From positions 1-64,000 of the IMG/VR virus record IMGVR_UViG_3300036793_000060: a DNA stretch of 64,000 bases. One strand, given 5' to 3'. The notes under the pieces are model-generated. The model was given only the letters and a program-made list of their open reading frames with translations, was not told the origin of the DNA and made no database searches. Made by a program: the position numbers and the translations under genes. The DNA comes from a virus. Its lineage: Duplodnaviria; Caudoviricetes. Positions 12,459 to 27,095 of this stretch are shown one piece after another; position 1 is the first letter of the stretch, and each line of letters begins with the position of its first letter.

Positions 12459-12464
12459 TACTGT
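12459..12464 (+). promoter_or_regulatory. -10 element (TACTGT), likely leaderless transcript
   Basis: TAnnnT hexamer 6 nt before ATG 12471, with no Shine-Dalgarno sequence. Confidence 0.45.
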
Positions 12465-12470
12465 GACGGC

Positions 12471-12647
12471 ATGGAACAGGAAGAGTGGCCGGAGTTGATG
12501 ACGGTGACCGAGGTCGCCAGAGTCCTCCGCGTGAGCAAGATGACCGTGTACCGCCTGGTGCACGGTGAGGAGATCAGCTCCAAGAGGGTGGGGCGCGGCT
12601 ACCGGATCCCCGCCAGCTCCCTGCGCGCGTACCTCGCGCAGGCCTAG
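12471..12647 (+). CDS. HTH_17 excisionase-like protein, BdtA/Rv0500A-like
   Basis: LMTVTEVARVLRVSKMTVYRLVHG...RVGRGYRIP. Confidence 0.88.
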   Translation: MEQEEWPELMTVTEVARVLRVSKMTVYRLVHGEEISSKRVGRGYRIPASSLRAYLAQA

Positions 12648-12655
12648 GCCTAGCC

Positions 12656-12814
12656 GTGCAGTGGCAGGCGACCGCCATCCTGCAGAACGGGGCGGTCATG
12701 CTGTTCGGGCTGGCGGCCGAGAACAAGACGATGGCGTCAGCCAAGGCGTGGGGCAGGGTCGCCGCGCTGCTGGTGGCTGACGTCCACGTCGAGGAACTGC
12801 AGGTCATCCGGTTA
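12656..12814 (+). CDS. Small hypothetical protein; apparent end at TTA 12812-12814 overlapping the pol ATG (formal stop at 12940)
   Basis: TTATG overlap mimics TAATG/TGATG coupling. Confidence 0.5.
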
Positions 12815-14574
12815 TGGGTGCCCTGCAGAGCGTCCGGCTTCACCTGGTCGACAATCTGTCCGCGCTCGATGAGTGCCGCAGGTGGGCAGGGAACAGCAGG
12901 CCGTGCCCGCTGTTCTTCGACACCGAGTCCGGCGGGCTGAACCCCTACCGGGACCGGATGCGGCTCCTCCAGCTGGGCGACATGACCGACGGCTGGGCGT
13001 TCCCCGTCCACTGGGCGGGCGCGGCGGCCGAGATCCTGATGGCCTACGAGGGGCCTCTCGGCGCGCACAACCACGGATACGACTGGCGCGTACTGCAGCA
13101 GAACCTGCCAGGCATCCGGCCGCTCTGGCACAAGACCGAGGACTCGCTGACGCTCGGGCACCTGGACGACTCGATGAAGCTGGCTGGCCTGAAGGAGCGG
13201 GCCGAGATAGAGGTCGACCCGACCGCCGCGAGGGGCCAGGCAGACCTCCAGGCGGGCATGAGGGCGAACCGGTGGACGTGGGGCACCGTCCCCGCCACGT
13301 GGGCGCCTTACTGGTGCTACGGCGCGCTCGACCCCGTGCTGGCGGCGCACCTGTGGATGACGCTCGGGCCGCGCGTGCTGCCCAGGTACCGGGAGGCCTA
13401 CGACCTGGAGCGGGCGGTCATCCGGATCTGCGCGGGGATGATGGACCGGGGGATGATGGTCGACCTGCCCTTCATCCGGGAGAAGATCGCCGACATCGAG
13501 CGGTTCACCGCGCAGGCCCTGCCGTGGCTGCGAGAGAACTTCGGCATCGAGACGGTCAACAGCGGGCCGCAGGTGATGCGGGGCCTGAACAGCGCCGGGA
13601 TCCAGACGGTGGTGCTCACCGAGGAGGGCAACCCCTCGATATCCAAGGAGGCGCTTGGCTTCTACGCGGGCGCCTACCCCGAGCACGCGGCGCTGATCAA
13701 CACCATCCGGCTGTGCCGCAAGGCGGGCGACCTGACCGGGAAGTACCTGGGCAAGTTCCTGGCCATGCAAGACGACGGGATCATGCACTACTCGATCTGG
13801 CCATGCCGAGCGCGCACATCGCGGATGAGCGTAACCGACCCGCCGATGCAGACCTACGACCGCGACGAGCCGGTAGTCCGTGGCGCGTACATCCCGAGGC
13901 CCGGCCACGTGCTGGCGCCCATCGACGCCGACCAGTTCGAGATGCGGCTCACCGCGCACTTCAGCGGCGACGCCCAGCTGATCGCTGACTTCCTGGAGGC
14001 CGAGCGGAACGGCCAGTCGTTCTTCGTCCTCGCCAGCGGGAGAATCTACGGGGAGCAGGTCTCCAAGAAGGACCCCCGGTACAACTACACGAAGAACTCC
14101 AGCTACGCGCAGGTGTACGGGGCGTCGCTCCGCAAGGCGGCGGCCACGGCGGGCGTGCCCGAGGCGCAGATGGGCGAGGCCTACTACGGCTTCCAGCGGC
14201 GCTATCCGGGGGTGCCACGGCTCATGCAGCGGCTGATCTACGCCGCGAAGAGGCGGGGAGGCCGGCCATACGCCGACATCATCGACGGGCGGCGGCTCTG
14301 GGTGCCGAGGGGCCACGAGTACGCGATCCTCAACACTGAGGTCCAGGGAGGCCAGGCGGTGCTGATGAAGCGCAAGCTCGTCGAGCTGGACGCGGCCGGG
14401 TTCGGCGAGTTCATGGACCTGACCATTCACGACGAGATCCTCTTCGAGTTCCCCGAGAAGGAGGCGGAGAGAATGCTGGCCCAGGCTACGGAGCTGCTTA
14501 CCGACCGCACGTCGTTGGCAGTTCCCATTACCTGGAGCGGGACAATTCTTAGGGAGAGATGGCGCAAAACATGA
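12814..14574 (+). CDS. polA: Family A DNA polymerase with 3'-5' exonuclease
   Basis: ExoI FFDTES, ExoII HN..YD, ExoIII YGALD; motif A IDADQFEMR, motif B KNSSYAQVYG, motif C IHDEI. Confidence 0.95.
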   Translation: MGALQSVRLHLVDNLSALDECRRWAGNSRPCPLFFDTESGGLNPYRDRMRLLQLGDMTDGWAFPVHWAGAAAEILMAYEGPLGAHNHGYDWRVLQQNLPGIRPLWHKTEDSLTLGHLDDSMKLAGLKERAEIEVDPTAARGQADLQAGMRANRWTWGTVPATWAPYWCYGALDPVLAAHLWMTLGPRVLPRYREAYDLERAVIRICAGMMDRGMMVDLPFIREKIADIERFTAQALPWLRENFGIETVNSGPQVMRGLNSAGIQTVVLTEEGNPSISKEALGFYAGAYPEHAALINTIRLCRKAGDLTGKYLGKFLAMQDDGIMHYSIWPCRARTSRMSVTDPPMQTYDRDEPVVRGAYIPRPGHVLAPIDADQFEMRLTAHFSGDAQLIADFLEAERNGQSFFVLASGRIYGEQVSKKDPRYNYTKNSSYAQVYGASLRKAAATAGVPEAQMGEAYYGFQRRYPGVPRLMQRLIYAAKRRGGRPYADIIDGRRLWVPRGHEYAILNTEVQGGQAVLMKRKLVELDAAGFGEFMDLTIHDEILFEFPEKEAERMLAQATELLTDRTSLAVPITWSGTILRERWRKT

Positions 14575-15305
14575 GCAGCCTTGACGAGAGCAAGGAGCAG
14601 GTAGCCAGCGAGTTCGAGGAAAGGCTGGCTGATTACGAGGGCGCGGCCATTTCCGCGCCGGTACTGCGGCAGGTACTGCGGGACATGCTGAACCGCGCGG
14701 TGATAATCCCTGCCGCTGCAGCCCTGAAGCTGCAGGAGGAGGCCCTTGCCCAGCGAAGGGCGAAGGACCAGGCCTACTCCGAGCGGAATGCGCTGGTCGC
14801 GGTAATGACCAAGGTCTGGCCGTCGCACCTGCTCGATCACCCTCGCAATCTCCCGGACTATGACCCGGAGTACCCGGTGGCTGTGTGCGTGCACATCCCC
14901 GAGGCGGGACAGCAGGGCTGGCATGTCCACCGGGATGAGCTGCACCTGTTCAGCCACCTGAAGGGCCTGGACATCCCGTCCTGCCCCGGCTGGCAGCCCT
15001 ACAGCACGCAGGAAAAGTACCAGCGCCTGGGGCAGCTTCCGGTGCTCCGCAGGGACGCCGTCAGGACCGCGCTGAGGGAGTCATCGGGCAGTGACTTCCA
15101 CGTGAGGGCCGACCTCTGGGACAGGGGCGACCTCGGCTGCAAGTGGGTGAAGTCCGACGCGTTCGGGCGCCCGGTGGCTACGCTGCGGCGCATCGGCTGG
15201 CTCGACCAGAAGGGCCGCGTGTACGTTCACGCGCCCGGAGTTACAGGGTTCGACGGGGGTAGCCTGACCCCGCTGCTCATCGACGTGCGAGAGGACGGAC
15301 ACTGA
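14571..15305 (+). CDS. Hypothetical phage protein
   Basis: AYSERNALVA...GQQGWH...YSTQEKYQRL, a motif pattern I recall from phage hypothetical proteins. Confidence 0.7.
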   Translation: MSSLDESKEQVASEFEERLADYEGAAISAPVLRQVLRDMLNRAVIIPAAAALKLQEEALAQRRAKDQAYSERNALVAVMTKVWPSHLLDHPRNLPDYDPEYPVAVCVHIPEAGQQGWHVHRDELHLFSHLKGLDIPSCPGWQPYSTQEKYQRLGQLPVLRRDAVRTALRESSGSDFHVRADLWDRGDLGCKWVKSDAFGRPVATLRRIGWLDQKGRVYVHAPGVTGFDGGSLTPLLIDVREDGH

Positions 15306-15406
15306 TGCGGAGCTTCTCCAACGGGGCGGGGGCGGACAACCGCGACCCTGACTGCCCCGAGGTAGCTGACCAGCAGCACCAGCTGGCACCCGGCAGGATC
15401 TGAGGA

Positions 15407-15432
15407 GGAACACCGGCCTGCCGGGCAGCGTT
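15407..15432 (+). promoter_or_regulatory. SigR/SigH-type ECF promoter
   Basis: GGAAC-N18-GTT(A). Confidence 0.7.
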
Positions 15433-15469
15433 ATCCGGAGTGCGTGAAGCCAGGAAAGGGAGCAGGGAG

Positions 15470-15595
15470 ATGTCAGTACGGATCGGGTTCTCGGTGGGGA
15501 TCTGGCCGTTCCGCATCTGGATCGGCAAGACCTTCTACAAGAGGAAGAGGCGCAGCCGTGGGGCTTATCAGGCCAGGCGGAGGCAGCGGCCCTAA
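15470..15595 (+). CDS. Small basic protein (41 aa), not in the ORF track
   Basis: MSVRIGFSVGIWPFRIWIGKTFYKRKRR...; strong RBS, directly downstream of the ECF promoter. Confidence 0.55.
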   Translation: MSVRIGFSVGIWPFRIWIGKTFYKRKRRSRGAYQARRRQRP

Positions 15596-15858
15596 CGGGT
15601 CGCCCGGCAGCAGTGACAGGGGCGGGTCCGGGCAGGGTGCCAACGGGCCGCACAGCAAGCCGCCTACCGGCCGCCCGAAGTGAGCCTCAGGCGGCCAGCG
15701 GGCCGGGCGGGCACGCACCCGTCCGGCCCTGCGGGCACCCGCCCTCAGCGGGTGCTGACGATCGAGCGGGGACCATGCGGGTGCGCCACGTGCGAGTGCA
15801 CGTGCCTGACGCTTGCTTGGGTCTGCCCGTGCTGCAAGGCAGGGAGGCACGACGGGAC

Positions 15859-16341
15859 ATGCTCACCCCAGTGACTACGTGGGTCGACCCCGGAGGCATG
15901 ACGGGGGTCGCCACCTACTACAGGGACACCGGCCAGATGTGCGCGTTCGAGTGCGCGCAGATGGACGCCAGCGCGATGGTCTGGTCGCTGTGCGCGGCTC
16001 ACCGCGACTCCCTCGCCATCGGCTGGGAGAAATTCACCATCACGGGAAACACGGCCAAGTTCACCAGGGCGGGGAGCAATGCCGCGATAGAGGTCATCGG
16101 GGTCTGCCGGTGGGCCGCGCACGCATGGTCGTGCACAGTGCTGCCAGCGGCCCAGCAGCACACGCCGGACGCCGCTGACCAGCACCTGCTGAAGTCGCTC
16201 GGCTGGTGGGTGCCCGGCAAGGATGACGCGCAAAGCGCTGCGGCGCATCTCGTAAGGTGGATGCTGCGCAGTAACCAGGCGCCGCCCGTGGTGGCGGCTG
16301 CCGTGCAGATGGCACAGGGATCAGGGAGACAGGGAACATGA
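15859..16341 (+). CDS. RuvC-like Holliday junction resolvase (RNase H fold)
   Basis: WVDPGGMTGVA, IGWEKF, KDDAQSAAAH acidic-residue pattern. Confidence 0.7.
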   Translation: MLTPVTTWVDPGGMTGVATYYRDTGQMCAFECAQMDASAMVWSLCAAHRDSLAIGWEKFTITGNTAKFTRAGSNAAIEVIGVCRWAAHAWSCTVLPAAQQHTPDAADQHLLKSLGWWVPGKDDAQSAAAHLVRWMLRSNQAPPVVAAAVQMAQGSGRQGT

Positions 16342-16790
16342 CCGCGAGAAGGGTCACGCAGATACGCACGGTCGCGCAGCGCAAGGCGGCCAAGATGGCG
16401 AGCATCAGTGACGGGCAGCTCATCTGCCTGTCGATGCACCGCCACGACTTCCCGAGCGACACGCTCTCGCCGAGGGACACCAAGCTCCCCAAGGGCATGG
16501 AGGCGAGGCTGGAGCGCCAGGGGAGCTACCAGATCACCGACACGTGCAGGCGGTGCGGCAAGAAGCGCACGTTCGACACGCCGACCGGGGACCTGTTCGG
16601 CCAGCGGGCCGGCTACAAGTACGAGAGGCCGGACGACCACGTCGTGTTCTCCCGCGATGAGTGCGAGGAGCTTGGCATCTCACCGTCCGCTGACGCGGCT
16701 GTCGAGAGGTTCCACCGGATCGCGCCGCTGATCCAGCGCACCGCGCAACCGGTGACCGAAGTGAAGTTCAAGGGGGCAGGCGCGTCATGA
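16338..16790 (+). CDS. Hypothetical Cys-containing protein
   Basis: CLSMHRH...CRRCG; coupled ORF. Confidence 0.65.
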   Translation: MTARRVTQIRTVAQRKAAKMASISDGQLICLSMHRHDFPSDTLSPRDTKLPKGMEARLERQGSYQITDTCRRCGKKRTFDTPTGDLFGQRAGYKYERPDDHVVFSRDECEELGISPSADAAVERFHRIAPLIQRTAQPVTEVKFKGAGAS

Positions 16791-17173
16791 AGGGCATCAT
16801 CGCCTACGACGACCTCGACGCGGCCGAGGGCAAGCGCACCATCGCCAGCGAGACCGTGCCGCTGTCCCTCGACGGGCAGGATGTCGAGGTCGACCTGTCA
16901 GAGGAGCACGCCAGCGCCCTGCGGGAGTTCCTGCACCCGTACCTGGTGGCGGGCGGCGCGTTCACGTCCAAGGCGTCATCCGGTGCGGGGGGCAAGTGGA
17001 CCGAGCGCCGCGACTACCTGAAGCTGTACCGGCGGTGGGCGGCGAAGAACGGCGTTCACTACATCTCAGAGGGCGGCAGCTACTACTACAGCAAGGACGG
17101 CATAGCCCAGTTCGACGCCTGGCTCGCAACAAGCCGCCAGCAGCTGGCGCCCATTCCGGAGGTAGGCGAGTGA
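16787..17173 (+). CDS. lsr2: Lsr2-like nucleoid-associated protein
   Basis: DDLD....A.ETV..SLDG..VEVDLSEEHA..LRE.L.PY...G dimerisation domain; divergent C-terminus. Confidence 0.85.
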   Translation: MKGIIAYDDLDAAEGKRTIASETVPLSLDGQDVEVDLSEEHASALREFLHPYLVAGGAFTSKASSGAGGKWTERRDYLKLYRRWAAKNGVHYISEGGSYYYSKDGIAQFDAWLATSRQQLAPIPEVGE

Positions 17174-17571
17174 CCGAGATCAGCGGCACGCCCGACCCGT
17201 ACGAGGGCGACCCCGTCTTCGAGGGCCTGGTCCCTGCCGTCAGCCCGGCCAGGGCGCTGGTGATCGCGGTCGAGCAGAAGCTGGCGGACACCTACGGGGC
17301 CTTCTGGCGGAATAGGCTGCCGGACGACCTGAAGCTGTACATGCACCCGTCGGTGCGCAGGGAGCTGTGGAAGGACGCGTCCTTCATGAGCTTCGAGGCC
17401 TTCCGGAACGGCGGCGACATCGAGGCGGTGTTCTACGTCCCGGTGCACGTCACCATCGACGGGCTGATGCCCGGCCAGTGGAAGCTGGCGATCATCACCG
17501 AGAACGTGCTGCTCGGCGGTACGCTGCTGCCTCCGGACGAGAGGGGCACGGGTGGCCTGGGCAGCAGCTGA
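17170..17571 (+). CDS. Hypothetical protein
   Basis: GTG start coupled to the Lsr2 stop. Confidence 0.6.
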   Translation: MTEISGTPDPYEGDPVFEGLVPAVSPARALVIAVEQKLADTYGAFWRNRLPDDLKLYMHPSVRRELWKDASFMSFEAFRNGGDIEAVFYVPVHVTIDGLMPGQWKLAIITENVLLGGTLLPPDERGTGGLGSS

Positions 17572-19399
17572 CCTGGACAGCACGCCGGGCCAGGTCATCC
17601 TGGCCATCGGCTGCTCGCGGGCAGAATACGGTTTGTGCGAGCAGATCCCCGGCTGCAACTTCAGCAAGAAGGACTCGCTCTGGCGCGTCCCGCTGACCTG
17701 GCCAGCCTGGGTCTGCTTCCGCACCATCTGGGCGCAGCAGCACATCGTCATCTCGCCAGCCCTTCAGGAGTTCGAGCGCCAGGAGTGGGAGGTCATCAAG
17801 GACCGGTACCGGTGGCGCTCGGTGCTCAGCGAGACCGACCAGGGCATCGCGCTGCACCTCGATGAGCTGGATGAGCACTCGCCTGGGTTCGCGCTGCTCC
17901 CCTTCCAGCGAGGCGGGGCGCAGTGGCTGGACCTGGCCGGCCGGGCGATCCTGGAGGACCCGCAGGGCAACGGCAAGACTCCCCAGGTCATCCGGGCACT
18001 GCAGATGCAGAGGCACCACGCGGGACGCGTCGGGTGGCAGGCGCTGGTCATCGCCACCCCCGCCGCGTGCCGGAACTGGAAGCGCGAGTTCGCCCGGTGG
18101 GCGCCGGAGATGGACGTGCAGGTCGTGTCGGGCACCGCGACCGCAAGGCGCAAGGCACTGGCCGCCGGGGACGCGAGCGTGTACGTCCTGCCGTGGCCCG
18201 ACGTCCGGCTGCACACCCGGCTGGCGAACTACCCCGGCCAGGCGTTCGTCCGGTGCGACGCCCACGGCGGGTCGACCGGCAAGACGCCGGCCCAGTGCGA
18301 GGTGCACCCCAAGGAGCTGAACGCGATGACGTTCGACGTCGTCGTGGCCGATGAGGCGCACAGGATGAAGGACGCCAGGTCCAAGCAGACGCGGGCAGCC
18401 TGGTACCTGGCCCACAGTGCCAGGTGCTTCTGGCCGGTGACAGGCACCCCGGTAGCCGACCACGTCGGCGACGTGTGGCCGGTCCTGCACGGCATCAGCG
18501 AGGTGGCGTTCCCGTCCAAGTCGCGCTACCTGGACCTGTTCGCTCGCAAGGAGTATGCCTGGCACGGGGGCACGGAGATCCTCGGGCTGCGGCCGGACAA
18601 TGAGCAGGCCTTCCACGCGATCGTGCAGCCGTACGTGCGCCGGATCCCCAAGGAGATCGGCCGCGCCCAGCTGGGCAGCGTGTACAAGGGCCGGCTGGAG
18701 CCAGCGTTCCGCTATCCCGAGATGGCCCCCGCGCAGCGCAAGTCCTACGACCAGATGCGCAAGGTGGCCCTGGCCGAGCTGGAGTCGACCACTGTCGTCC
18801 CGGAGAACACCATCGTGGCGTTCACCCGGCTGTGCCAGATGGCCGCCAGCGCCATCGAGGCCTACGACGGGGAGGACAGGGACGGGTTCACCACCCAGCG
18901 AATCAGGATGGTGGCGCCGTCGCACAAGGCGGCCGACCTGCTCGACTTCCTCGCCGACGAGGACGAGTCCGAGCAGTTCGTCGTCTACATGAACAGCCCT
19001 CAGCTGCTGGCGATCTGCGAGGCGAAGCTGGCCGACGCGAAGATCAAGTACGACAAGGTCGCCGGGGGAATGGCGGAATGGCAGCAGGATGAGTCCGTGC
19101 AGTCATTCCAGCGCGGCGACTCGCGCGTCTGCCTGATCACGCGGGCTGGCATGGAGTCAATTACGCTGACAGCCGCCAGCACCATCTTGTTCCTGCAGCC
19201 GAACCCGTCATTCCTGCAGACGGACCAGGCGATCGGCCGAATTGACAGGATCGGCCAGGAGTACCCGGTTCGGGTCATCTACTCGCTGACGCCGAATACG
19301 GTGGAGGAAAGGCTGTTCCAGCTGTCGCAGGAAAAGCAGGAGAGGGCCGATGAGGTCACACGGGACGCGGACCTGATGCGCTGGATGCTGACGCCGTGA
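17552..19399 (+). CDS. SNF2-family (SF2) helicase
   Basis: PFQR.G...EDPQGNGKT, VVADEAH, TGTP, QAIGRIDRIGQ. Confidence 0.92.
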   Translation: MAWAAADLDSTPGQVILAIGCSRAEYGLCEQIPGCNFSKKDSLWRVPLTWPAWVCFRTIWAQQHIVISPALQEFERQEWEVIKDRYRWRSVLSETDQGIALHLDELDEHSPGFALLPFQRGGAQWLDLAGRAILEDPQGNGKTPQVIRALQMQRHHAGRVGWQALVIATPAACRNWKREFARWAPEMDVQVVSGTATARRKALAAGDASVYVLPWPDVRLHTRLANYPGQAFVRCDAHGGSTGKTPAQCEVHPKELNAMTFDVVVADEAHRMKDARSKQTRAAWYLAHSARCFWPVTGTPVADHVGDVWPVLHGISEVAFPSKSRYLDLFARKEYAWHGGTEILGLRPDNEQAFHAIVQPYVRRIPKEIGRAQLGSVYKGRLEPAFRYPEMAPAQRKSYDQMRKVALAELESTTVVPENTIVAFTRLCQMAASAIEAYDGEDRDGFTTQRIRMVAPSHKAADLLDFLADEDESEQFVVYMNSPQLLAICEAKLADAKIKYDKVAGGMAEWQQDESVQSFQRGDSRVCLITRAGMESITLTAASTILFLQPNPSFLQTDQAIGRIDRIGQEYPVRVIYSLTPNTVEERLFQLSQEKQERADEVTRDADLMRWMLTP

Positions 19400-19515
19400 G
19401 GGATTACTGGGGCTGGCTACGCGAGAATCCTTATCATATGACCTCATTCATCATCAACGTCGCCGGGCTGTGCTGCGCTGTATCTGCTATCTGCCTGCTG
19501 ATCGCCGGAGGCTGA
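19396..19515 (+). CDS. Small membrane protein (39 aa)
   Basis: GTGA-coupled; hydrophobic FIINVAGLCCAVSAICLLIAGG. Confidence 0.45.
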   Translation: MRDYWGWLRENPYHMTSFIINVAGLCCAVSAICLLIAGG

Positions 19516-19517
19516 CC

Positions 19518-19817
19518 GTGAAGGCAAGAGGATGGGCTATCCAGTACAAGTTCCCGCTCCCTTATGACATCATCGTGACGAACGACGTCGGCGAGCACGT
19601 GATCGTGAATGTCCAGTCAATCGAGGTGCCTTTCGATACCGAGGCGTCGGCACTGGGCGCAGCCGACGACGGACTTCCGAGGGTTATCGCCAAGAACCAG
19701 GTCGTGGAGGGGGAGGTAATCACCGATGATAGCGATCAGCAATTCAGAGATCGCGCTGTGGAAGCGGTGCCGCCGTCAGTGGTACCTAAGGTATTACCTT
19801 GGCATGCGGCTGGCTGA
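19518..19817 (+). CDS. Hypothetical protein overlapping the nuclease gene; in-frame TTA at 19794
   Basis: GTG start 2 nt after the upstream stop. Confidence 0.5.
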   Translation: MKARGWAIQYKFPLPYDIIVTNDVGEHVIVNVQSIEVPFDTEASALGAADDGLPRVIAKNQVVEGEVITDDSDQQFRDRAVEAVPPSVVPKVLPWHAAG

Positions 19818-20730
19818 CGAGAACGCCACCGGCCCGATGCAGCAGGGCACGCGCATCCACACTGCCCTGGAGGCCCAGTACGGGTACGGCGTCCCGGCCC
19901 ACAAGGCGCTGGCCACGATCTACGACCACGCCGAGGCCCGGTGGCCCGAGCCGGCCGACGTCGCCGCGCTGCGGGCCGAGCGCGAGACGTCGCTGATCAT
20001 GGTCAGCGGCTACCTGGAGTGGGTAGACGAGACCGGCGCCGACGCGAATCTCCGGGTGGTGGCGACCGAGCGTGACATCAGGGTGCCGATGCCAGGCATG
20101 CCGGAGGTGCTGCTGCGGGCCAAGCTGGACCAGGTGGTGCTGGACGAGCAGTCAGGAATGCTGTCGTTCCTTGACCACAAGACGTCGGCCAGCTTCGAGA
20201 AGCACGAGCACCTGGTGCTCGACCCGCAGTTCCGCCACTACGCGCTCATCCAGCGGCTGGCGCGGCCAGCCGGCGCTCCGCAGGTCTACGGCGGGATCAT
20301 GAACACGCTGCGCCGGGTCAAGCGCAGCTCGGCCAGCAAGCCGCCCTACTACCAGCGGGATGCCGTCCGGTTCAACGACGAGGCGATCGAGGCCACGCTG
20401 ATGTCCGTGCGCGGCGCGGTCATGGAGATCGTCATGGCGCGCAGCGGGTTCGACGAGATCCGCGAGGCCGGCAACGTGCTGGAGTCCGTGAACGCGGCAC
20501 AGCGGCTGATCACCTACCCCAACCCGCGAGTTCGCGACTGCAGCTGGGACTGCCCGTTCACGTCGCTGTGCCCGATGATGGACGACGGCAGCGACTGGGT
20601 GGGCGCCCTGATCGCCAGCGGCCGGTACGCCCAGGGCGACCCGTACGGGTACTACGGGGACTCACTGCTCCCGCTGGTCCTGGCGGCGGGTAAGGTGGGC
20701 GGCACGGAACAGGGAGAGGGCAACGGATGA
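19726..20730 (+). CDS. PD-(D/E)XK (RecB/Cas4-like) exonuclease
   Basis: SNSEI..WKRC.R.W, GTRIH, ATE, KLDQ, LDHKT, QF.HY, CSWDCPF...C. Confidence 0.88.
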   Translation: MIAISNSEIALWKRCRRQWYLRYYLGMRLADENATGPMQQGTRIHTALEAQYGYGVPAHKALATIYDHAEARWPEPADVAALRAERETSLIMVSGYLEWVDETGADANLRVVATERDIRVPMPGMPEVLLRAKLDQVVLDEQSGMLSFLDHKTSASFEKHEHLVLDPQFRHYALIQRLARPAGAPQVYGGIMNTLRRVKRSSASKPPYYQRDAVRFNDEAIEATLMSVRGAVMEIVMARSGFDEIREAGNVLESVNAAQRLITYPNPRVRDCSWDCPFTSLCPMMDDGSDWVGALIASGRYAQGDPYGYYGDSLLPLVLAAGKVGGTEQGEGNG

Positions 20731-21482
20731 GGCCTCAGGGGCTGTCGTTCCTGATACACGCCAACGCGAAGGCAGGCAAGTCAACGCTGTGCGACAGCGG
20801 GCCGCAGCCACGGCTGATACTCGACGTCGAGGGCACGGCGGTCTGGACGCCGTCCAGGAAGACGGAGTGGGATCCGATGCGGACGCCGCCACCCCAGCTG
20901 GGGCAGCGGGTTACTGCCGGGTACGGCCAGCCGTCGGTCAACCCTGACTGGGAGTCCTGCCTGGTCATGGTGCGCGACATGTCCACCATCACCTCGGCCT
21001 ACAAGGTGCTGTCGAGCGGTCAGCACCCGTTCGCCAGCCTGTCGTTCGACTCGATCACCGAGGGCCAGCAGAGGATGATTGACAAGCTGGTCGGCACCAA
21101 GAAGATGGAGTACGACCACTGGGGGTCGATACTCCGGCAGATCAGCTCGATGACCAGGCAGTTCCGCGACCTGACCACGCACCCCACCAGGCCGCTGTGG
21201 TCGGTGGCGTTCGTGGCCGGCACGCACTGGGACAAGACGACCAGCAAGTGGCGACCGCTGGTGCAAGGGCAGTCCCAGGACTTCCTGCCGTACTACGTCG
21301 ACATCGAGGGGTACCTCGGTGCGTCGCCGGGCGGGTCGAGAGACCTGCTCATCGGCCCTCACCCCCGCTTCGAGACAGGCGAGCGGGTAGCGGGCCGGCT
21401 CCCTTACTCGATGCAGATCGGGTACCGGGGCAGCCAGGGTTACACACTTGAGGGCATGGTCCGCCAGGTTCTCGCAGCCTAA
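20727..21482 (+). CDS. AAA_24 / Sak4-like ATPase (putative recombinase)
   Basis: HANAKAGKST Walker A, ILDVEG, FDSITE; lies between the nuclease and SSB-like genes. Confidence 0.8.
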   Translation: MRPQGLSFLIHANAKAGKSTLCDSGPQPRLILDVEGTAVWTPSRKTEWDPMRTPPPQLGQRVTAGYGQPSVNPDWESCLVMVRDMSTITSAYKVLSSGQHPFASLSFDSITEGQQRMIDKLVGTKKMEYDHWGSILRQISSMTRQFRDLTTHPTRPLWSVAFVAGTHWDKTTSKWRPLVQGQSQDFLPYYVDIEGYLGASPGGSRDLLIGPHPRFETGERVAGRLPYSMQIGYRGSQGYTLEGMVRQVLAA

Positions 21483-21504
21483 GCCGGGAAGGAAAGGCAC
21501 GCAC

Positions 21505-22518
21505 GTGAGCAGCATGTACGACTACAGCGCACTCTGGGGCCAGGCGGACATGACCGCCGGGCAGCTCCTGGAGGCAGGCGACTATGACCTGGTGGTCGAG
21601 GACGCCGAGTGGGGGTCGACCAAGAGCGGGGACAAGGGTGCCTGGACGATCAAGTTCCGGGTCACCACCGGCCCGCACGCGGGCGCCTCGCTGACGCACA
21701 CCATGAGCGTCTCGCCGACCAGGAACGACGGTGACCCCAACAACGCGGGCCTGGGCATCATGTTCCGCGAGCTGGGCGCGCTCGGCATTCCCGTGCCGCC
21801 CAACCAGCCCTTCTGGGCGCTCGGGTGGAACGAGCAGAACGTCGCGCAGGCGATGAAGGGCCGGCCGTGCCTCGCGCACATCATCCAGAACGAGTGGGAG
21901 AACGGCACCAACAACAAGGTGCGCAAGATCCGCGACCCTCGCCCCGGTGCCCCGACCGACTGGCCGCGCAGCCAGGGCCAGCCGCAGCAGGCCCAGCAGC
22001 CGCAGCAGCAGGGCTGGGGACAGCCTCCGCAGCAGCAGGGCCAGTTCGCCCCGCAGCAGCCGCAGCAGCCGCAGCAGCCGCAGCAAGGCCCCTACGGGCA
22101 GCCGAACGCCCCGTGGAACCCGATGGCCCAGGGACAGCCGCAGCAGCCTCCCGCGCAGCCTCAGCAGCCCTGGCAGGGCCAGCCGCAGCAGCAGCAGCCG
22201 GTACAGCAGCCGGGCTTCGCGCCCGGCCAGGGCGGCGCCGGGGAGTTCACCCCGCAGGGACAGTCCCAGCAGCCCTGGCAGCAGGCCCAGCCACAGCAGC
22301 CGGCGCAGCCCGGCTACGGCACGCCTCCCGGCCCGCAGCCAGGCCAGCCCTCGCCGTGGAACCAGCAGGCACCGCCGCAGCAGCCCGGCTACGGCCAGCA
22401 GCAGCCCCCGCAGGGGCCGCAGGGGTACCCGCCCCAGCAGCCCCAGCAGGCACAGAACGGGCAGGGTCCTGGCCAGCCACCCCAGGCTGGCCCGGCCATG
22501 CCTCCCTGGGCGCAGTGA
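21505..22518 (+). CDS. ssDNA-binding-like protein (DUF669/OB-fold type) with long Q/P/G-rich tail
   Basis: LLEAGDYDLVVEDAEW..TKSG.K..W.IKFRV...EWENGTNNKV; gene context. Confidence 0.75.
   Translation: MSSMYDYSALWGQADMTAGQLLEAGDYDLVVEDAEWGSTKSGDKGAWTIKFRVTTGPHAGASLTHTMSVSPTRNDGDPNNAGLGIMFRELGALGIPVPPNQPFWALGWNEQNVAQAMKGRPCLAHIIQNEWENGTNNKVRKIRDPRPGAPTDWPRSQGQPQQAQQPQQQGWGQPPQQQGQFAPQQPQQPQQPQQGPYGQPNAPWNPMAQGQPQQPPAQPQQPWQGQPQQQQPVQQPGFAPGQGGAGEFTPQGQSQQPWQQAQPQQPAQPGYGTPPGPQPGQPSPWNQQAPPQQPGYGQQQPPQGPQGYPPQQPQQAQNGQGPGQPPQAGPAMPPWAQ
21975..22500 (+). repeat. Coding low-complexity CAG/CCG repeats (QQP units)
   Basis: Many cagcagccg units. Confidence 0.85.
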
Positions 22519-22637
22519 CGGAATACCCGGATCCCGCGCTGCGCTTACAGGGCCGTCTCGTACCCTCCTGGCCGAGGGGCGGGGCGCGTGGCTCGCCCCC
22601 TCTCCGTCACGTGCTTCAGGGGAGGGGGCGGGAGCCG

Positions 22638-22663
22638 GGAATGAAAAGTACCGGCCAGGCGTT
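22638..22663 (+). promoter_or_regulatory. SigR/SigH-type ECF promoter
   Basis: GGAAT-N18-GTT(A). Confidence 0.75.
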
Positions 22664-22676
22664 AGACGGAGTACAA

Positions 22677-22764
22677 CAGCAGAACAGGGTCTCACCGCAA
22701 GGTAGGCGGGGGCAGTAAGGTTTCGACCTGAAGCCGCCGAGACGCGACTTGGCCCGTTCTGCTG
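22677..22764 (+). ncRNA. Candidate structured 5' leader RNA (GNRA and UUCG tetraloops, AGUA/GAA loop-E motif)
   Basis: Nested complementary segments located by eye; begins at the predicted TSS. Confidence 0.55.
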
Positions 22765-22808
22765 CTGCAGAGGTAAGTGAGAGTCACTACCAAGGAGAAG
22801 GCAAGGAA

Positions 22809-24062
22809 ATGGCACCACAGCTCATCGCCCGCAACGCGAGCGCGCAAGATCTGGTCGCCCTGCTCAACACGCAGAAGGCCGAGAAGCTCGACCTGGTCGT
22901 CCCGGCCGCCAACGTGTGGTCGAAGGACGGCAAGATCGTCGTCAAGAACGCCGAGCCGCAGATCACCGATGAGGGCGTCTCGACGGTCAACGGCACCTAC
23001 CGGCCGACCGAGGTCTTCGATGAGGGCCTGGCCAGCAAGCTGGAGATCCCGAGCAAGTACGTGCAGCGGCTTCGCGCCGACCGGCCCGACCTGCTCGACG
23101 CCAACGTCAACGGCCTCCTTCACGGGCGGGCGCTGTTCGGCAAGGACGGCACGAGGACCGAGATATACCCGGCCGACACCCGAGCGTTCCTGCTCCGGCT
23201 GTTCCGGGGAGACGGCGGCGAGGGCGTTGCCCGCGCGATGCTGTCTGACCGGTACTCGCTCGGCATGGACAACCTGGACATGCTCACGGCGGTCATGAAG
23301 GGCGTGCAGGACGCGGGCGTGAACGTCATCACCCGCGTGTCCGACCTGTCCGAGCGCCGGATGCGGGTGCGGTTCGAGGCGCCCGACGTCTACACCCAGG
23401 CCCCTGGCCTGCTCGACGGCTACCGGTCCCCGTTCGACGGGGGCGGCGCGGTGCGCCGGGCCGGCAGCTTCAACGAGCTGCGCCAGCAGTACGGGCAGCA
23501 CCACATCTTCAGCGAGAAGGACGCGCCGATCGCGTTCATCGGGTTCGACTTCACCAACTCCGAGACCGGCTCCGGGGCCTACACCCTGACTCCCGTGATC
23601 GAGATGGTGCGGTGCACGAACGGCTGGGTGATGCGGAGGGAGGGCCTGCGCAAGGTCCACCTGGGATCCAAGCTGGAGGCCGGCAACGTCACCCCCAGCC
23701 TGGACACGCTCCGCAAGGCCGGCACGCTGGTCGCGGCCGAGACACGGGACGCGATCAAGCAGTGGCTGACCCAGGGGTACCTGGAGCAGCTGATCGCCAG
23801 CCTGACCGAGAAGGCGGCCACCCCGATCGCCAGCCCCGCGAACACGGTTCCGGCGGTCACCAAGAGCCTCGGCTTCACCTCCGAGGAGCAGGACGGCATC
23901 CTGGACCTGTTCATCAAGTCCGGCCAGCCCACCGCTGGCGGCGTCGCCCAGGCAATCAGCGCCTACGCCCAGATCGTCGAGGACCCCGACCGGGCCTACG
24001 ACATCGAGCTGAAGGCAGTCGACGGCCTCGATGAGGCCGCGCGGATCGGTGCCCGCGCCTAA
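22809..24062 (+). CDS. DUF932-like protein
   Basis: RAMLSDRY...DN, NSETGSGAY...VRCTNG...VHLG. Confidence 0.75.
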   Translation: MAPQLIARNASAQDLVALLNTQKAEKLDLVVPAANVWSKDGKIVVKNAEPQITDEGVSTVNGTYRPTEVFDEGLASKLEIPSKYVQRLRADRPDLLDANVNGLLHGRALFGKDGTRTEIYPADTRAFLLRLFRGDGGEGVARAMLSDRYSLGMDNLDMLTAVMKGVQDAGVNVITRVSDLSERRMRVRFEAPDVYTQAPGLLDGYRSPFDGGGAVRRAGSFNELRQQYGQHHIFSEKDAPIAFIGFDFTNSETGSGAYTLTPVIEMVRCTNGWVMRREGLRKVHLGSKLEAGNVTPSLDTLRKAGTLVAAETRDAIKQWLTQGYLEQLIASLTEKAATPIASPANTVPAVTKSLGFTSEEQDGILDLFIKSGQPTAGGVAQAISAYAQIVEDPDRAYDIELKAVDGLDEAARIGARA

Positions 24063-24079
24063 GCGCACCGCCAATGAGC

Positions 24080-24120
24080 GCAGCCCGTTCGGGATTCCCC
24101 CCTCCCGAGCGGGCTGCTTT
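24080..24120 (+). terminator. Intrinsic terminator
   Basis: GCAGCCCGTTCGGGA/TCCCGAGCGGGCTGC stem followed by TTT. Confidence 0.75.
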
Positions 24121-24128
24121 CCATCTCG

Positions 24129-24154
24129 GGAACAAGAAGTACCGGCCAGCCGTT
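24129..24154 (+). promoter_or_regulatory. SigR/SigH-type ECF promoter
   Basis: GGAAC-N18-GTT(A). Confidence 0.75.
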
Positions 24155-24191
24155 ATACTGGCTGAGGGACCGAGAGACGGCCCCGAGGGAG

Positions 24192-24668
24192 ATGGCTATG
24201 AGCAGGCAGTTCGACAAGATCGAGGTCGACGCCGAGTACCGGAGCACCGCGCGCACCAGCCCGGAGTTCACGCTCCGCAGGCACCGGTCCTTCGGGGGCG
24301 TGTACGACGCGCCCGAGGTCGGCCTCGGCACCCTGGACGACCTGAGGGCGCTGGACGAGAAGATCGCGTACGTCCTGCGGCCGACGGCCGAGCAGGTCTA
24401 CGAGTCGACCCTGGACAACCTGTTCGACGGGGAGTCCGAGGGCGACGTGGAGGCGCCGACGGGCTGGTTCGCCCTGGTGAACTGGCCGAACGGCTGCACG
24501 TACGTGGTCACGCATGATCACCTGGGGTTCTCGCACATGCGCGCGAGCGATGACCCGCAGCGCAACACGATCAGCACGGCGCCGACAAAGGCGCAGCTGA
24601 CCAAGGTGTACCAGGGCCTGTGCGATGAGTTCAGCGCGTGGGCCGACCTTCCCGAGGAGGAAGTGTGA
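24192..24668 (+). CDS. Hypothetical early protein
   Basis: RBS, downstream of promoter. Confidence 0.7.
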   Translation: MAMSRQFDKIEVDAEYRSTARTSPEFTLRRHRSFGGVYDAPEVGLGTLDDLRALDEKIAYVLRPTAEQVYESTLDNLFDGESEGDVEAPTGWFALVNWPNGCTYVVTHDHLGFSHMRASDDPQRNTISTAPTKAQLTKVYQGLCDEFSAWADLPEEEV

Positions 24669-24928
24669 CCAGGACAGAGGGAACAGGGGACGCGGACCAG
24701 GAGCGCCGGGCCATGATCGAGGCCGGTGAGCCGGCCAGCGACCTGGACCACGCGAGGGCCCTTGGCCAGCAGACGTGGGACACCGGCCAGCTGGCCAGTG
24801 ACTTCGACGTCCTGCAGTTCGCGGCGCCGTTCGTGATCGCCCGGCGCAAGCTGGACGGCAAGGTGGGGAGCCTGGAGTTCACCCACCACCCGCGCGTTTA
24901 CTTCGGATGGCGGGAGCACCAGGAGTGA
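24665..24928 (+). CDS. Hypothetical protein
   Basis: Coupled; FDVLQFAAPFVIARRK.DG..GSLEF.H.PR.YF. Confidence 0.7.
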   Translation: MTRTEGTGDADQERRAMIEAGEPASDLDHARALGQQTWDTGQLASDFDVLQFAAPFVIARRKLDGKVGSLEFTHHPRVYFGWREHQE

Positions 24929-25335
24929 ACAGGGACAAGGCGATAACGCTGATCAACGGGACGACCTTCAAGCCGGGCTGGCGGTTCACCGCCGGCCCAG
25001 GCGACACGTACACCGAGGTCGAGGTGACATATCACGTCGACACGATGGACACGTCGCTGCCGGACGCGATGGGCCGCTACGAGGTGCCCAAGCTGCTGGA
25101 GTCGGAGGTCACCTTCGACGTCAGCCGCCTGGCCGAGGGCGAAGTCCTCTACCGGCTGCTGCTCATGGCGGCAGAGCTGGACTCCCACGAGAATCGCGAG
25201 TTCCTGCGGGTCCGCGACGAGAACGGCAACTGGATGGCCCCCTTCCACCCCCACACGGGGATCGGGGAGGCGTCCTTCGAGGCGGCTAAGGAGCTGGCAG
25301 CCCGCGAGGAATACGCGCGGCTGGCACGTCGTTGA
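24925..25335 (+). CDS. Hypothetical protein
   Basis: Coupled; HE.REFLR...FHPH. Confidence 0.7.
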   Translation: MNRDKAITLINGTTFKPGWRFTAGPGDTYTEVEVTYHVDTMDTSLPDAMGRYEVPKLLESEVTFDVSRLAEGEVLYRLLLMAAELDSHENREFLRVRDENGNWMAPFHPHTGIGEASFEAAKELAAREEYARLARR

Positions 25336-25376
25336 CATTGGCGCAGGGCCAGGGCGGCACTGCGAGGGAGAAGATC

Positions 25377-25850
25377 ATGAGGTTTCAGCTTCACGGCCAC
25401 AAGGGCGGCCTGCCCGTCGAGGTGGAGTCCGGCCGGCTGGCAAGCGCAATCATTGAGTTCCAGCTGGAGCACAACCAGCGAGTCACCAGCGCATGGGCGC
25501 TCAGCGATCAGCGCAGGCAGTGGGAGTCCGCAGACGGCCTCCTGGAGGAGTTCCGCCAGTTCGACGGGAGCGTGAACGGCGGGCAGATCTTCGTCGAGCC
25601 GAACACGCCCGGCAACGGGCACCCTGTGCTGGCTGACTGGGTGGCCTGGTGGAAGGGCGACATCGCCGGCTACATCATCGACGCCCGCAACTGGGAGAGG
25701 CCCGCCAGCTACGACTCCCCCGAGAGCGAGGACGAGACCCCGTTCGAGGCGTGGGACACGGGCCGTGGCCCGGACGCGTTCCTCGGCGAGTACCACTCGG
25801 TGCGCGGCGCGGCGACCGTGGTCGTCGCCCGGAGGATCCGCAGGGCGTAG
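25377..25850 (+). CDS. Hypothetical protein
   Basis: RBS GGGAGAAG; acidic protein. Confidence 0.65.
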   Translation: MRFQLHGHKGGLPVEVESGRLASAIIEFQLEHNQRVTSAWALSDQRRQWESADGLLEEFRQFDGSVNGGQIFVEPNTPGNGHPVLADWVAWWKGDIAGYIIDARNWERPASYDSPESEDETPFEAWDTGRGPDAFLGEYHSVRGAATVVVARRIRRA

Positions 25851-25869
25851 GGCACCCTGAGCAGGCCGG

Positions 25870-25895
25870 GGAATAACCCCCGGCCTGCTGGTGTT
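25870..25895 (+). promoter_or_regulatory. SigR/SigH-type ECF promoter overlapped by a hairpin
   Basis: GGAAT-N18-GTT(A); AGCAGGCCGGGG/CCCCGGCCTGCT stem at 25860-25889. Confidence 0.75.
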
Positions 25896-25940
25896 ATACG
25901 AGCTGAACCGGTCAGGGAGACCGGAGAGGGAGACCGGGCA

Positions 25941-26123
25941 ATGAACGACGACTACGACCTGACAGGCGCACTGATCGGACTCGATGAGGGCACGCTGGAC
26001 GAGGACGCGGAGATCGCGCTTTTCCAGTACCTGATCGACAGCGGCCTGGCGTGGAAGCTCCAGGGCCGGATCGGTCGCCAGGCGGCGGACATGATCGAGG
26101 CCGGGCTGGTGGCAGTCCGATGA
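25941..26123 (+). CDS. Small hypothetical protein
   Basis: LFQYLIDSGLAWKLQGRIGR.A..MIEAG motif. Confidence 0.7.
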   Translation: MNDDYDLTGALIGLDEGTLDEDAEIALFQYLIDSGLAWKLQGRIGRQAADMIEAGLVAVR

Positions 26124-26374
26124 GCGTGCGGAACTTCTGGATCGAGACGCAGGTAGACGGCCACGGCGGGATCCCCGCCACTGGCCCCAAGGCAGCCGAC
26201 GGCGGGTTCACGTCCAAGTTCTGGATCCGCAAGGGCGGCGAGCATGCGGCAGTCCTCCGGCTGGAGGGCATGACCACGCACAACGGAGACGTTGAGCTGT
26301 ACGTGATCCCGTCCGAGGGCACTGAGATCGAGCGCCTGGACCACGGCGGGTTCGTGATCCGCAGCAAGCGCTAG
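26120..26374 (+). CDS. Hypothetical protein
   Basis: ATGA-coupled MSVRNFW. Confidence 0.65.
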   Translation: MSVRNFWIETQVDGHGGIPATGPKAADGGFTSKFWIRKGGEHAAVLRLEGMTTHNGDVELYVIPSEGTEIERLDHGGFVIRSKR

Positions 26375-26485
26375 ACAACTGAGCAGCAGTGCCTCGCAAC
26401 GAGCGACAGCCAGCCGACGCGAGAGGCGCGGATGAAGGGGGTAGGGGCCTGATCAGCCCCGGATCCTGGATCGCGGCGCCGGCAA

Positions 26486-26594
26486 GGGCGTGCAACTGCG
26501 CCGCTGACGTGCTGTAGACCCCAGTACGTTGGCGGCCAGGGACAGGAACCCGCGTGGTCAGCGGGGGCTGGTTCAATTCCAGCCGCGCCCACCA
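26486..26594 (+). ncRNA. tRNA-like RNA (acceptor stem, T arm, encoded CCA; no canonical D or anticodon arm)
   Basis: GGGCGTG/CGCGCCC 7-bp stem, A73 + CCA, GCTGG-TTCAATT-CCAGC; intergenic. Confidence 0.65.
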
Positions 26595-26633
26595 GCCCCG
26601 CAGGGAGCGGGGTGCAGGTGATCGGAGAAGATC

Positions 26634-27095
26634 ATGGCGGTTGACAAGAGGGACATCGAGCACAGGCTCACGCAGCAGGTGCACGCCAGGAACATCAGGG
26701 CGTGGCGCCGGGCGCTGTGGGCCAGCTGGATGGGCGACGGGTACGAGGTCACCCCGTTCGGCGGCGAGTCCCTGGTCCTGAAGCCAGCGGAGGCCTACGC
26801 GCTCCTGGCAGGCATCGAGAGCGCGGTCGCGGCCGAGAAGTCGCGGCAGGATGCCGAGGCCAGGGCCAGGGCCGAGCTTGACGCCGAGCAGGCGGGCAAG
26901 CGCGCGGCCGAGGCCGACGCTGAGAACCTTGCCGTCGAGACGACAGGGTGCCCTACCTGCAAGGCCGAGCCTGGCCAGCGGTGCACCCGCGAGCAGGCCG
27001 ACCCGACCCCGTACGCGGCTCACCCGCACGCTCCCCGGCTGGCAGAGGCCGGGGTCAGGGTCAGGCAGGCCAGGGAGGAAGTGTTCGGACGATGA
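26634..27095 (+). CDS. Hypothetical protein with C-terminal Zn finger
   Basis: CPTCKAEPGQRC...HPHAPRL. Confidence 0.7.
   Translation: MAVDKRDIEHRLTQQVHARNIRAWRRALWASWMGDGYEVTPFGGESLVLKPAEAYALLAGIESAVAAEKSRQDAEARARAELDAEQAGKRAAEADAENLAVETTGCPTCKAEPGQRCTREQADPTPYAAHPHAPRLAEAGVRVRQAREEVFGR

Follow-up and report, generated by a model that had tools for sequence, protein, structure and literature searches.

The usual explanation for transfer RNA genes in phages is codon supply or the replacement of tRNAs that host defences have destroyed. Phage T4 also encodes two stable RNAs, species 1 and 2 (rnaC and rnaD), which have tRNA-like ends and are matured by tRNA enzymes, with no known decoding role. 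RNase P processes a number of substrates that are not tRNAs, including pre-tmRNA, phage M3 RNA, the C4 RNA of phages P1 and P7, and operon mRNAs, and an interaction between an RCCA sequence and the RNase P RNA helps the cleavage of such substrates (PMC11143913). Similarly, mascRNA is an anticodon-less tRNA-like RNA which is cut, as a small stable RNA, from a longer transcript by tRNA enzymes and which acts, uncharged, through a synthetase (PMC9976931). In addition, a study on jakobid mitochondria describes reduced tmRNAs comprising mostly the tRNA-like domain (PMC3590771), and Y RNAs of the YrlA type, known from bacteria and mycobacteriophages, represent phage-encoded non-coding RNAs with a tRNA-mimicking T arm and recognition by tRNA enzymes (PMC4201824).

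Here we describe an element of 109 nt (positions 26486-26594, plus strand) in which the accepting end of a tRNA has been kept and the decoding parts are missing. It is a genuine tRNA-like element, distinct from an ordinary tRNA. Without decoding parts it fits neither codon supply nor tRNA replacement, and points either to RNA processing, with a tRNA-like module punctuating a phage operon, or to acceptor-end mimicry; although an orphan, it is a well-defined candidate for a tRNA-like non-coding RNA. As with mascRNA (from MALAT1), the P1/P7 C4 RNA precursor, M3 RNA and the operon mRNAs, it would constitute a module within a longer transcript (PMC9976931, PMC11143913), and, like those RNase P substrates, it has no working anticodon loop but an acceptor and T arm arranged in a way that suits RNase P. 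Processing of those RNAs has been demonstrated experimentally, whereas that of the present element is predicted. Further, mascRNA is a near-cloverleaf of 61 nt that receives its CCA post-transcriptionally, in contrast to our element with its encoded CCA and the long hairpin in its body. With the tRNA-like domain of tmRNA, including its reduced mitochondrial forms, the element shares the acceptor stem, the T arm, the A73-CCA end and the absence of a D stem, but it differs in possessing a G3-C70 pair and in lacking both an mRNA-like part and, in its stable fold, helix 2a. The topology of YrlA is the reverse: its 5' and 3' termini make up the stem bound by Ro60, while the tRNA-like part is internal, with a loop capping its acceptor-like stem (PMC4201824); in our element the termini form the acceptor itself. 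YrlA is also encoded close to a Ro60 (TROVE) gene, no more than ~4 kb away and in the same orientation (PMC4201824), whereas the complete genome of this phage gave no TROVE match in a search that was positive for control genomes. T4 species 1 and 2, compared here by description only, reside in a tRNA cluster, unlike the present element, whose phage has no tRNA genes.

Genomic setting and anatomy of the element

The window, that is, the whole stretch of DNA analysed, comprises the first 64 kb of an IMG/VR virus record that is complete at 77,089 bp, with direct terminal repeats and 68% G+C. The portal protein is nearest to Streptomyces phage portals (38% identity) and the polymerase to Arthrobacter phage polymerases, so the host is probably an actinobacterium. 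No tRNA or tmRNA gene was identified by ARAGORN at default settings in the whole genome, and the complete genome had no match to tyrosine or serine integrases (PF00589 and PF00239). Searches of the phage for an encoded CCA-adding enzyme, SmpB or RtcB were also negative, as was a search of the genome for repeat copies of any part of the element. The element sits in a gap of ~260 nt (folded below as a 269-nt intergenic region) with a plus-strand gene on either side, and is thus encoded on the strand of both flanking genes. This gap lies at the end of a replication block encoding a family A DNA polymerase, an SNF2 helicase and a PD-(D/E)XK nuclease.

The gene upstream of the gap (26051-26374, plus strand) is a high-GC3 open reading frame of 107 aa matching phrog_37977, a family of unknown function; only an 84-aa form of it is present in a public protein collection, which implies a later start. 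Between this gene and the element the intergenic fold contains a structured leader (26425-26480, plus strand) with a hairpin at ~26444-26462, and directly after the CCA there is a trailing hairpin of 7 bp without a U tract (26595-26613, plus strand). The downstream gene (26634-27095, plus strand) encodes 153 aa with a weak match to a phage zinc-finger DNA-binding family (PF24623, E = 2.6e-4, below the curated cut-off). Its start codon lies 40 nt past the element, and its Shine-Dalgarno sequence follows the trailing hairpin by ~10 nt, in the loop of a small hairpin. A consensus scan revealed neither a sigma-70-like promoter nor a U-tract terminator near the element. Given this lack of a promoter or terminator of its own, together with the flanking hairpins and the ribosome-binding site just downstream, the simplest interpretation is that the element forms part of a polycistronic RNA. 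A putative promoter for such an RNA, of the ECF-sigma type (GGAAT-N18-GTT; 25870-25895, plus strand), is located just past the stop codon of the gene at 25332-25850. The motif GGAAY-N18-GTW occurs seven times in the window against 1.6 expected, a number reached in none of 100 shuffles, and this copy is placed 590 nt upstream of the element and ahead of the gene pair that precedes it. If functional as its sequence suggests, this putative promoter would drive the operon containing the element.

The 5' strand of the acceptor stem (26486-26492, plus strand; positions 1-7) pairs with 26584-26590 over 7 bp, including one U6:G67 wobble. Pairs 1-6 have pairing probabilities of 0.89-1.0; at pair 7 there is competition from a sixth pair of the T stem. 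The 3' segment (26584-26594, plus strand) comprises the acceptor 3' strand, the discriminator A73 (26591) and an encoded CCA (26592-26594), such that the RNA begins with a G1-C72 pair, has G-C at 3:70 and ends in ACCA. Positions 8-9 and the D arm are replaced by a connector of 3 nt (26493-26495, plus strand; 3-4 nt in the fold). With only these 3 nt from the acceptor to the long hairpin, no D stem of 3-4 bp with a G18 G19 loop can be drawn. The long hairpin (26496-26539, plus strand) consists of 3 bp, a bulged C at 26499, and a further 15 bp (26500-26514 with 26522-26536), for a total of 18 bp with pairing probabilities of 0.99-1.0. Three of the 15 helix pairs are G.U, and all 15 form only in the plus-sense RNA. 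The loop of this hairpin (26515-26521) is UAGACCC, 7 nt in length, with GAC at the anticodon positions. It is followed, in the RNAfold structure, by a purine-rich single-stranded linker of 9 nt with two GG steps (26540-26548, plus strand). A second hairpin (26549-26565, plus strand), with a 5-bp stem, a 7-nt loop of GUGGUCA and pairing probabilities of 0.99-1.0, is located where class II tRNAs have their variable arm, and cmscan places it on the variable arm of tRNA-Sec. The canonical T arm (26567-26583, plus strand) has a 5-bp stem, a G53-C61 closing pair and a loop of the TPsiCRA type (UUCAAUU). The features described for a minimal, minihelix-type RNase P substrate (PMC11143913) are present, namely a 12-bp stack of acceptor and T stem (7+5, or 6+6 in the minimum free energy structure), G1-C72 and RCCA. 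The initial annotation had described a 7-bp acceptor stem, an A discriminator, an encoded CCA and a T arm without a D stem, as well as the absence of G3:U70 and of a YU-NNN-R anticodon loop, all of which we confirmed. Neither 7-nt loop fits YU-NNN-R: that on the long arm has A33 and C37 on a stem of 15-18 bp, and that of the second hairpin has U33, but its G32 and C37 mean that it is not an anticodon loop.

RNAfold predicted a single dominant structure of -63.3 kcal/mol making up 52% of the ensemble. Shuffled sequences averaged -46.4 +/- 3.9 kcal/mol (z = -4.3), with 0 of 200 folding as well as the element, and the identical fold was retained on folding the whole 269-nt intergenic region. We also searched with a detector requiring a T arm, an adjacent 7-nt strand with an upstream complement (a 7-bp acceptor) and NCCA. 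The element was the sole site on both strands of the 77,089-bp genome, and no site was found in 300 first-order Markov shuffles; the T arm alone occurs 0.25 times per shuffled genome. All three departures from a perfect palindrome in the 15-bp helix keep pairing, in the plus sense only, which, if the hairpin started as a perfect palindrome, would correspond to roughly p = 0.04. Hairpins of at least 15 bp are found at four sites on the plus strand against 0.6 expected, the others having no sequence kinship with that of the element. The initial annotation also noted that 26501-26508 is a perfect Watson-Crick complement, over 8 nt, of 26557-26564 next to the T arm, and proposed two mutually exclusive folds, one pairing these strands as in tmRNA helix 2a and the other forming the 15-bp hairpin with 26522-26536. 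Both complements exist and both folds can be drawn, but their energies differ widely: relative to the best structure the helix-2a-like fold loses 14.5 kcal/mol, and its pairing probability is ~0. The additional 8-nt complementarity is itself only marginally unusual, by our estimate ~0.04 after allowing for ~16 noticeable sub-windows.

Several established classes were considered for these features and rejected. The element is not an ordinary tRNA of the canonical elongator type (Rfam RF00005), with no ARAGORN call, no hit at the Rfam gathering threshold, no D arm and no usable anticodon loop, in line with the initial annotation. The tRNA clan of Rfam also contains the tmRNA families. Rfam at E <= 10 returned sub-threshold noise only; tRNA-Sec ranked first with 20.9 bits, well short of its cut-off of 47, and no tRNA-clan match scored higher. 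Seven relaxed settings of ARAGORN yielded contradictory calls, none of which uses the acceptor at 26486. In tmRNA mode it made no call until the threshold was relaxed, and the resulting call had a different, implausible 5' end and an unidentified tag. The architecture of a tmRNA tRNA-like domain, as put forward in the initial annotation, was not supported, given a G3-C70 in place of G3:U70, no tag frame, a disfavoured helix 2a and no match to the family models; moreover, 109 nt leaves no room for an mRNA-like part with a resume codon and tag frame. A YrlA-type Y RNA was set aside on its opposite topology, the lack of a Ro60/TROVE gene and the absence of an Rfam match. An origin as an attP site was also rejected on the direct terminal repeats, the absence of an integrase, the presence of both acceptor strands and the lack of any actinobacterial match over 22 nt. 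Finally, A35, C36 and C38 in the loop and an ACCA 3' end, as in the valylatable RNA of TYMV, are present in the element, but a TYMV-type structure, which has a pseudoknotted acceptor at the 3' terminus of a genomic RNA and an L-shape with tRNA dimensions, was discounted on the ordinary acceptor helix, the position internal to a transcript of a DNA phage, and an arm that by inferred geometry is ~8 bp too long.

Valine-type ends and the search for relatives

The 22 nt from the T loop to A73 were searched for exact matches in 185,579 species genomes. Only four contained the sequence, all of them alphaproteobacteria. ARAGORN calls tRNA-Val(CAC) over the match at three of these four sites, while at the fourth (L012) the match resembles a copy of a 3' half, a tRNA-Val with one base different in its T loop lying ~1.7 kb off. 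At all four sites the identity spans 28 nt, covering the T arm, the 3' acceptor strand, A73 and the CCA. The 5' acceptor strand differs at one or two bases in the three intact genes. Compared with the bacterial tRNA-Val(CAC) genes at L010:29-103 and L011:5866-5940, for example, the last 28 nt are identical and the 5' acceptor strand matches at 6 of 7 nt. Also as in tRNA-Val, the element has GAC centred in a 7-nt loop, but it departs from tRNA-Val in lacking a D arm, in carrying an A33/C37 loop on an 18-bp stem, in its extra hairpin and in its length (109 versus 75 nt). The determinants listed for valine identity include A35, C36, C38, A73 and G3-C70 (PMC9976931), and the loop G34 A35 C36 with C38, together with A73 and G3-C70, supplies these elements (PMC9976931). 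The valine elements U4-A69, G20 and G45 are missing.

Given that valine had been guessed from the acceptor and loop before the scan returned matches to tRNA-Val only, descent from tRNA-Val(GAC) is the best reading of its origin, and sequence comparison suggests that the element most probably descends from a tRNA-Val gene. No actinobacterial genome among the 185,579 species genomes holds the 22-nt segment. With a host that is probably an actinobacterium, the alphaproteobacterial matches would reflect general conservation of valine tRNA ends and no recent capture.

Searches for homologues of the element itself identified none. Comparisons by blastn of the region, and of its 3' 40 nt, with 50,697 phage records revealed nothing informative, and an exact 25-nt probe had no matches in IMG/VR. 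We also assembled loci with a homologue of a neighbouring 437-aa protein (61-74% identity in the closest genomes), comprising seven viral and 20 metagenome loci. In none of these was the element detected by a single-sequence covariance model, ARAGORN, a motif scan or a scanner for acceptor and T arm. Two of these relatives derive from genomes that are 95-99% complete, both without the element, and it was likewise not found in the whole records of five relatives. Both flanking proteins had no relative besides themselves in a collection of 5.8 billion proteins, and in IMG/VR either no relative or a single distant one. The one relative of the downstream protein, at 41% identity, has no tRNA-like element upstream of its gene. 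The element is therefore a single orphan copy among the relatives examined. ARAGORN reported a 'tRNA-Gly' in one locus (L019), likely a false positive inside a coding sequence (z = +0.9).

Predicted processing and competing explanations

Our favoured reading, to which we tentatively assign a probability of roughly 45%, is that the element is a minihelix module of tRNA-Val origin which RNase P and further enzymes acting on tRNA ends recognise. The retained set comprises a coaxial 12-bp acceptor/T minihelix, a canonical T loop, G1-C72 and ACCA, with the D and anticodon arms replaced by a rigid hairpin of 18 bp and a small second one. Under this reading the element would be copied within the RNA of the phage replication-module operon, host RNase P would cut between 26485 and 26486, aided by the RCCA contact, and 3' nucleases would trim to the CCA. 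The polycistronic RNA would thereby be split between the flanking genes, each of which would then end or begin at a stable hairpin, and a compact CCA-ended RNA of ~109 nt would be released. The excised RNA could not decode, and its efficient charging would be unlikely. It may nevertheless be stable and might act in trans, so that its downstream role could be operon punctuation or that of a decoy. Supporting this reading are the anatomy and the statistics against chance, the sense-only helix, the valine-type ends, and a position within an operon without its own sigma-70-like promoter and downstream of an ECF-type motif, in addition to the precedents of minimal RNase P substrates (PMC11143913) and mascRNA (PMC9976931). 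Three elements from other viral records (L008, L036 and L037; see below) similarly keep the acceptor and T arm on rebuilt bodies. On the other hand, no homologue was found, two nearly complete relatives lack the element and the flanking genes are also orphans. The hairpin immediately after the CCA could hamper exonucleolytic 3' trimming, intact ends could also be kept by a young pseudogene, and punctuation needs no 18-bp hairpin.

Since punctuation alone leaves the long hairpin unexplained, two other readings stay alive. According to one, the element is a decaying relic of a phage tRNA-Val whose D and anticodon arms were lost by rearrangement or through an inserted palindrome, and which is present by chance, with no selected function. 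Its orphan status, including its absence from the two nearly complete genomes and every other relative examined, is in keeping with such decay, as are the lack of any other tRNA in the genome and a loop resembling a mutated valine anticodon loop (A33 for U33, C37 for a purine). Decay would not readily account, however, for an acceptor, T arm, A73 and CCA without defect, nor for a highly ordered interior (z = -4.3, with helix probabilities of ~1), the three of three substitutions in the 15-bp helix that keep pairing in the plus sense only, or the retention of a 260-nt gap despite the compactness of phage genomes, and on balance we regard a relic as possible though rather unlikely. According to the other, the excised CCA-ended minihelix would titrate a host factor whose targets, for binding or for attack, are tRNA 3' ends or acceptor/T arms; such a partner could be a defence-system toxin (a nucleotidyltransferase or pyrophosphokinase) or an enzyme of tRNA modification or processing. 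Toxins that target acceptor ends occur in actinobacteria. It is precisely the acceptor, T arm and ACCA that have been kept, and for a decoy the decoding parts would be dispensable. Phage tRNAs are also known to counter tRNA-directed immunity, as described in a preprint for the tRNA-Tyr of phage T5 against a retron (bioRxiv 10.1101/2023.03.15.532788). A decoy has no obvious partner, however; none of the genes adjoining the element was recognised as serving defence or anti-defence, there is no conservation, and the literature searched offered no precedent for an anticodon-less tRNA-like decoy RNA in phages, all of which leave it a doubtful proposition.

The remaining readings have less in their favour. 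In an extension of the synthetase idea of the initial annotation, ValRS or LeuRS might bind or weakly charge the element and translation be modulated thereby, as A73, G3-C70, A35, C36 and C38 are all present (PMC9976931), and mascRNA, along with minimal tRNA-Leu variants that are still charged without an anticodon arm, provides a precedent (PMC9976931). Yet the loop is carried on an 18-bp arm that by inferred geometry extends ~8 bp beyond the junction-to-anticodon distance of a tRNA, so that ValRS could not hold both ends, and U4-A69, G20 and G45 are missing. Bacterial LeuRS can ignore the anticodon but needs the D-loop/T-loop contacts G18:U55 and G19-C56 (PMC9976931), which an RNA without a D arm cannot obviously supply. 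The LeuRS idea thus appears unlikely, the associated suggestion in the initial annotation that UUA hopping would be favoured was not supported, and a synthetase ligand of either kind is improbable. Even less probable is a two-state leader acting as a switch for the downstream zinc-finger gene, in which 26501-26508 would pair with either 26529-26536 or 26557-26564. The perfect 8-bp second complement, the location of the element 40 nt before the start codon and a Shine-Dalgarno sequence within a small hairpin loop speak for a switch, but the alternative fold, 14.5 kcal/mol worse, is unpopulated, the favoured hairpin is transcribed first, and neither fold reaches the ribosome-binding site. We see very little prospect for a reduced tmRNA-like domain serving as a decoy for SmpB, the leading idea of the initial annotation. 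Such a role would draw on the absence of a D stem, on a strand adjoining the T arm that can pair with the 5' region, and on the reduced jakobid tmRNAs (PMC3590771); against it are the G-C pair at 3:70, the missing tag frame, no ARAGORN tmRNA at default settings, the cost of +14.5 kcal/mol for helix 2a, a phage without an SmpB gene, and no tRNA-clan match above 20.9 bits. A working, rewired decoding tRNA, reading Val codons through GAC on the long arm or Thr codons through GGU on the short arm, may be excluded for practical purposes and is close to refuted. Despite two 7-nt loops, one of them on a 5-bp stem with U33, the long arm has A33 and C37, the short arm has G32 and C37 with a single nucleotide between it and the T stem, a D arm is missing, no tRNA model reaches 21 bits, and the relaxed ARAGORN calls are inconsistent and place the ends elsewhere. 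Finally, phage attachment sites often hold the 3' half of a tRNA gene, which could suggest an attP core or some other piece of a host tRNA or tmRNA gene that the phage has copied. Considering that the genome has direct terminal repeats and no integrase, and that the element has both acceptor strands and no actinobacterial 22-nt match, we assign this origin a negligible probability.

Long and rebuilt tRNA-like elements in other viral records

In a distant relative (L008), the homologue of the 437-aa protein is followed directly by a tRNA-like gene of 83 nt (2794-2876). This gene has normal acceptor, D and T arms, an anticodon arm rebuilt as an 11-bp stem capped by a tetraloop, and ends that match a suppressor-type tRNA(CUA) of another viral contig. 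In addition, a gapped pattern combining a valine-type acceptor and T loop with an interior of 62-92 nt identified seven more long elements (94-114 nt) in IMG/VR. Of these, L036 is D-armless with a long imperfect hairpin, and L037 has a D arm and a ~24-bp helix that replaces the anticodon loop. The seven score 22-33 bits with the covariance model, values that derive from the ends imposed by the pattern and not from the interior. They count as analogues of the element and not as demonstrated homologues.

A further prospect, which we consider unlikely, is that the present element is a functional, phage-made 'headless tRNA': an abundant CCA-ended minihelix acting in trans as a decoy or sponge for a host protein that recognises acceptor ends, and belonging to a wider undescribed class with L008, L036 and L037 as other possible members. 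Were this the case, the class would keep acceptor and T arms while a long closed helix replaces the anticodon loop, and its targets might be, for example, a CCA-modifying defence toxin or a synthetase. Should RNAs of this kind turn out to be expressed and to recur, anticodon-less tRNA mimics would be added to the non-coding RNAs through which phages act on the machinery of the host, and their genes would be among those that standard tRNA finders miss. All seven IMG/VR elements were missed by ARAGORN, as were, counting the present one, all eight long Val-acceptor elements examined.

A conserved neighbour protein and its associated tRNA-like gene

The best-conserved gene of the phage group encodes a 437-aa protein (window 22749-24062; 61-74% identity in relatives), which was assigned to phrog_1362 (E = 7e-67) and gave no Pfam match. 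In a distant relative recovered through this protein (L008, IMGVR_UViG_3300049574_000083), an 83-nt tRNA-like gene (2794-2876) was identified directly 3' of the homologous locus. This gene has normal acceptor, D and T arms and an anticodon arm made of an 11-bp stem closed by a tetraloop; ARAGORN labels the anticodon-less gene tRNA-Gly(gcc), placing the anticodon at position 38. It shares its 22-nt 3' end exactly with a tRNA(CUA) in another viral contig, L035, which carries a tandem pair of tRNAs with CUA anticodons (3722-3870).

Long and otherwise unusual tRNA and tRNA-like genes

A valine-type acceptor was also observed on seven long tRNA-like genes (94-114 nt) in unrelated viral contigs (L036-L042), analogues of the window element retrieved from IMG/VR by a gapped pattern; ARAGORN called none of the seven. 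Their interiors include a long hairpin without a D arm (L036:4589-4682, minus strand), a helix of ~24 bp replacing the anticodon loop (L037:9046-9158, minus strand), a 10-bp hairpin inserted after the loop CUGACAC in a gene lying within a tRNA cluster (L041:11004-11117, plus strand), and a UGG-type loop with a very long variable arm (L042:10003-10104, plus strand). The remaining members, all on the minus strand, are L038:6245-6354, L039:1885-1982 and L040:384-485.

A long variable arm is normal for bacterial tRNA-Leu. In a contig distantly related to the window phage (L033), the tRNA at 981-1056, which has anticodon CAA and is called as Leu, is 76 nt long and of class I shape; it has a G1.U72 pair, A73 and encoded CCA. 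In addition, the 3' half of a tRNA-Val gene recurs on its own in a Rhodospirillaceae MAG (L012:2619-2640, minus strand), ~1.7 kb from the intact tRNA-Val; this copy looks like a direct repeat left behind by an integrated element.

Putative promoter motif, hairpin and upstream gene start

Seven copies of GGAAY-N18-GTW, a motif of ECF-sigma type with a CGTT ending in most copies, were identified in the window, at 10952-26155, against 1.6 expected. Copies at 15407, 22638, 24129 and 25870 lie close 3' of stop codons and 5' of ribosome-binding sites, and that at 25870 is overlapped by a 12-13-bp palindrome (25860-25889). A G+C-rich hairpin of 15 bp at 24080-24117 lies after the 437-aa gene's stop codon and before the motif at 24129; TTTCC comes next to it on the 3' side, and the arrangement resembles a classical intrinsic terminator.

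Downstream, two high-GC3 ORFs, 25941-26123 and 26051-26374, overlap each other and are read in different frames. The second is present in the public protein collection only as an 84-aa form, implying a start near 26120; given this form and the overlap, the start of the gene upstream of the tRNA-like element is uncertain.
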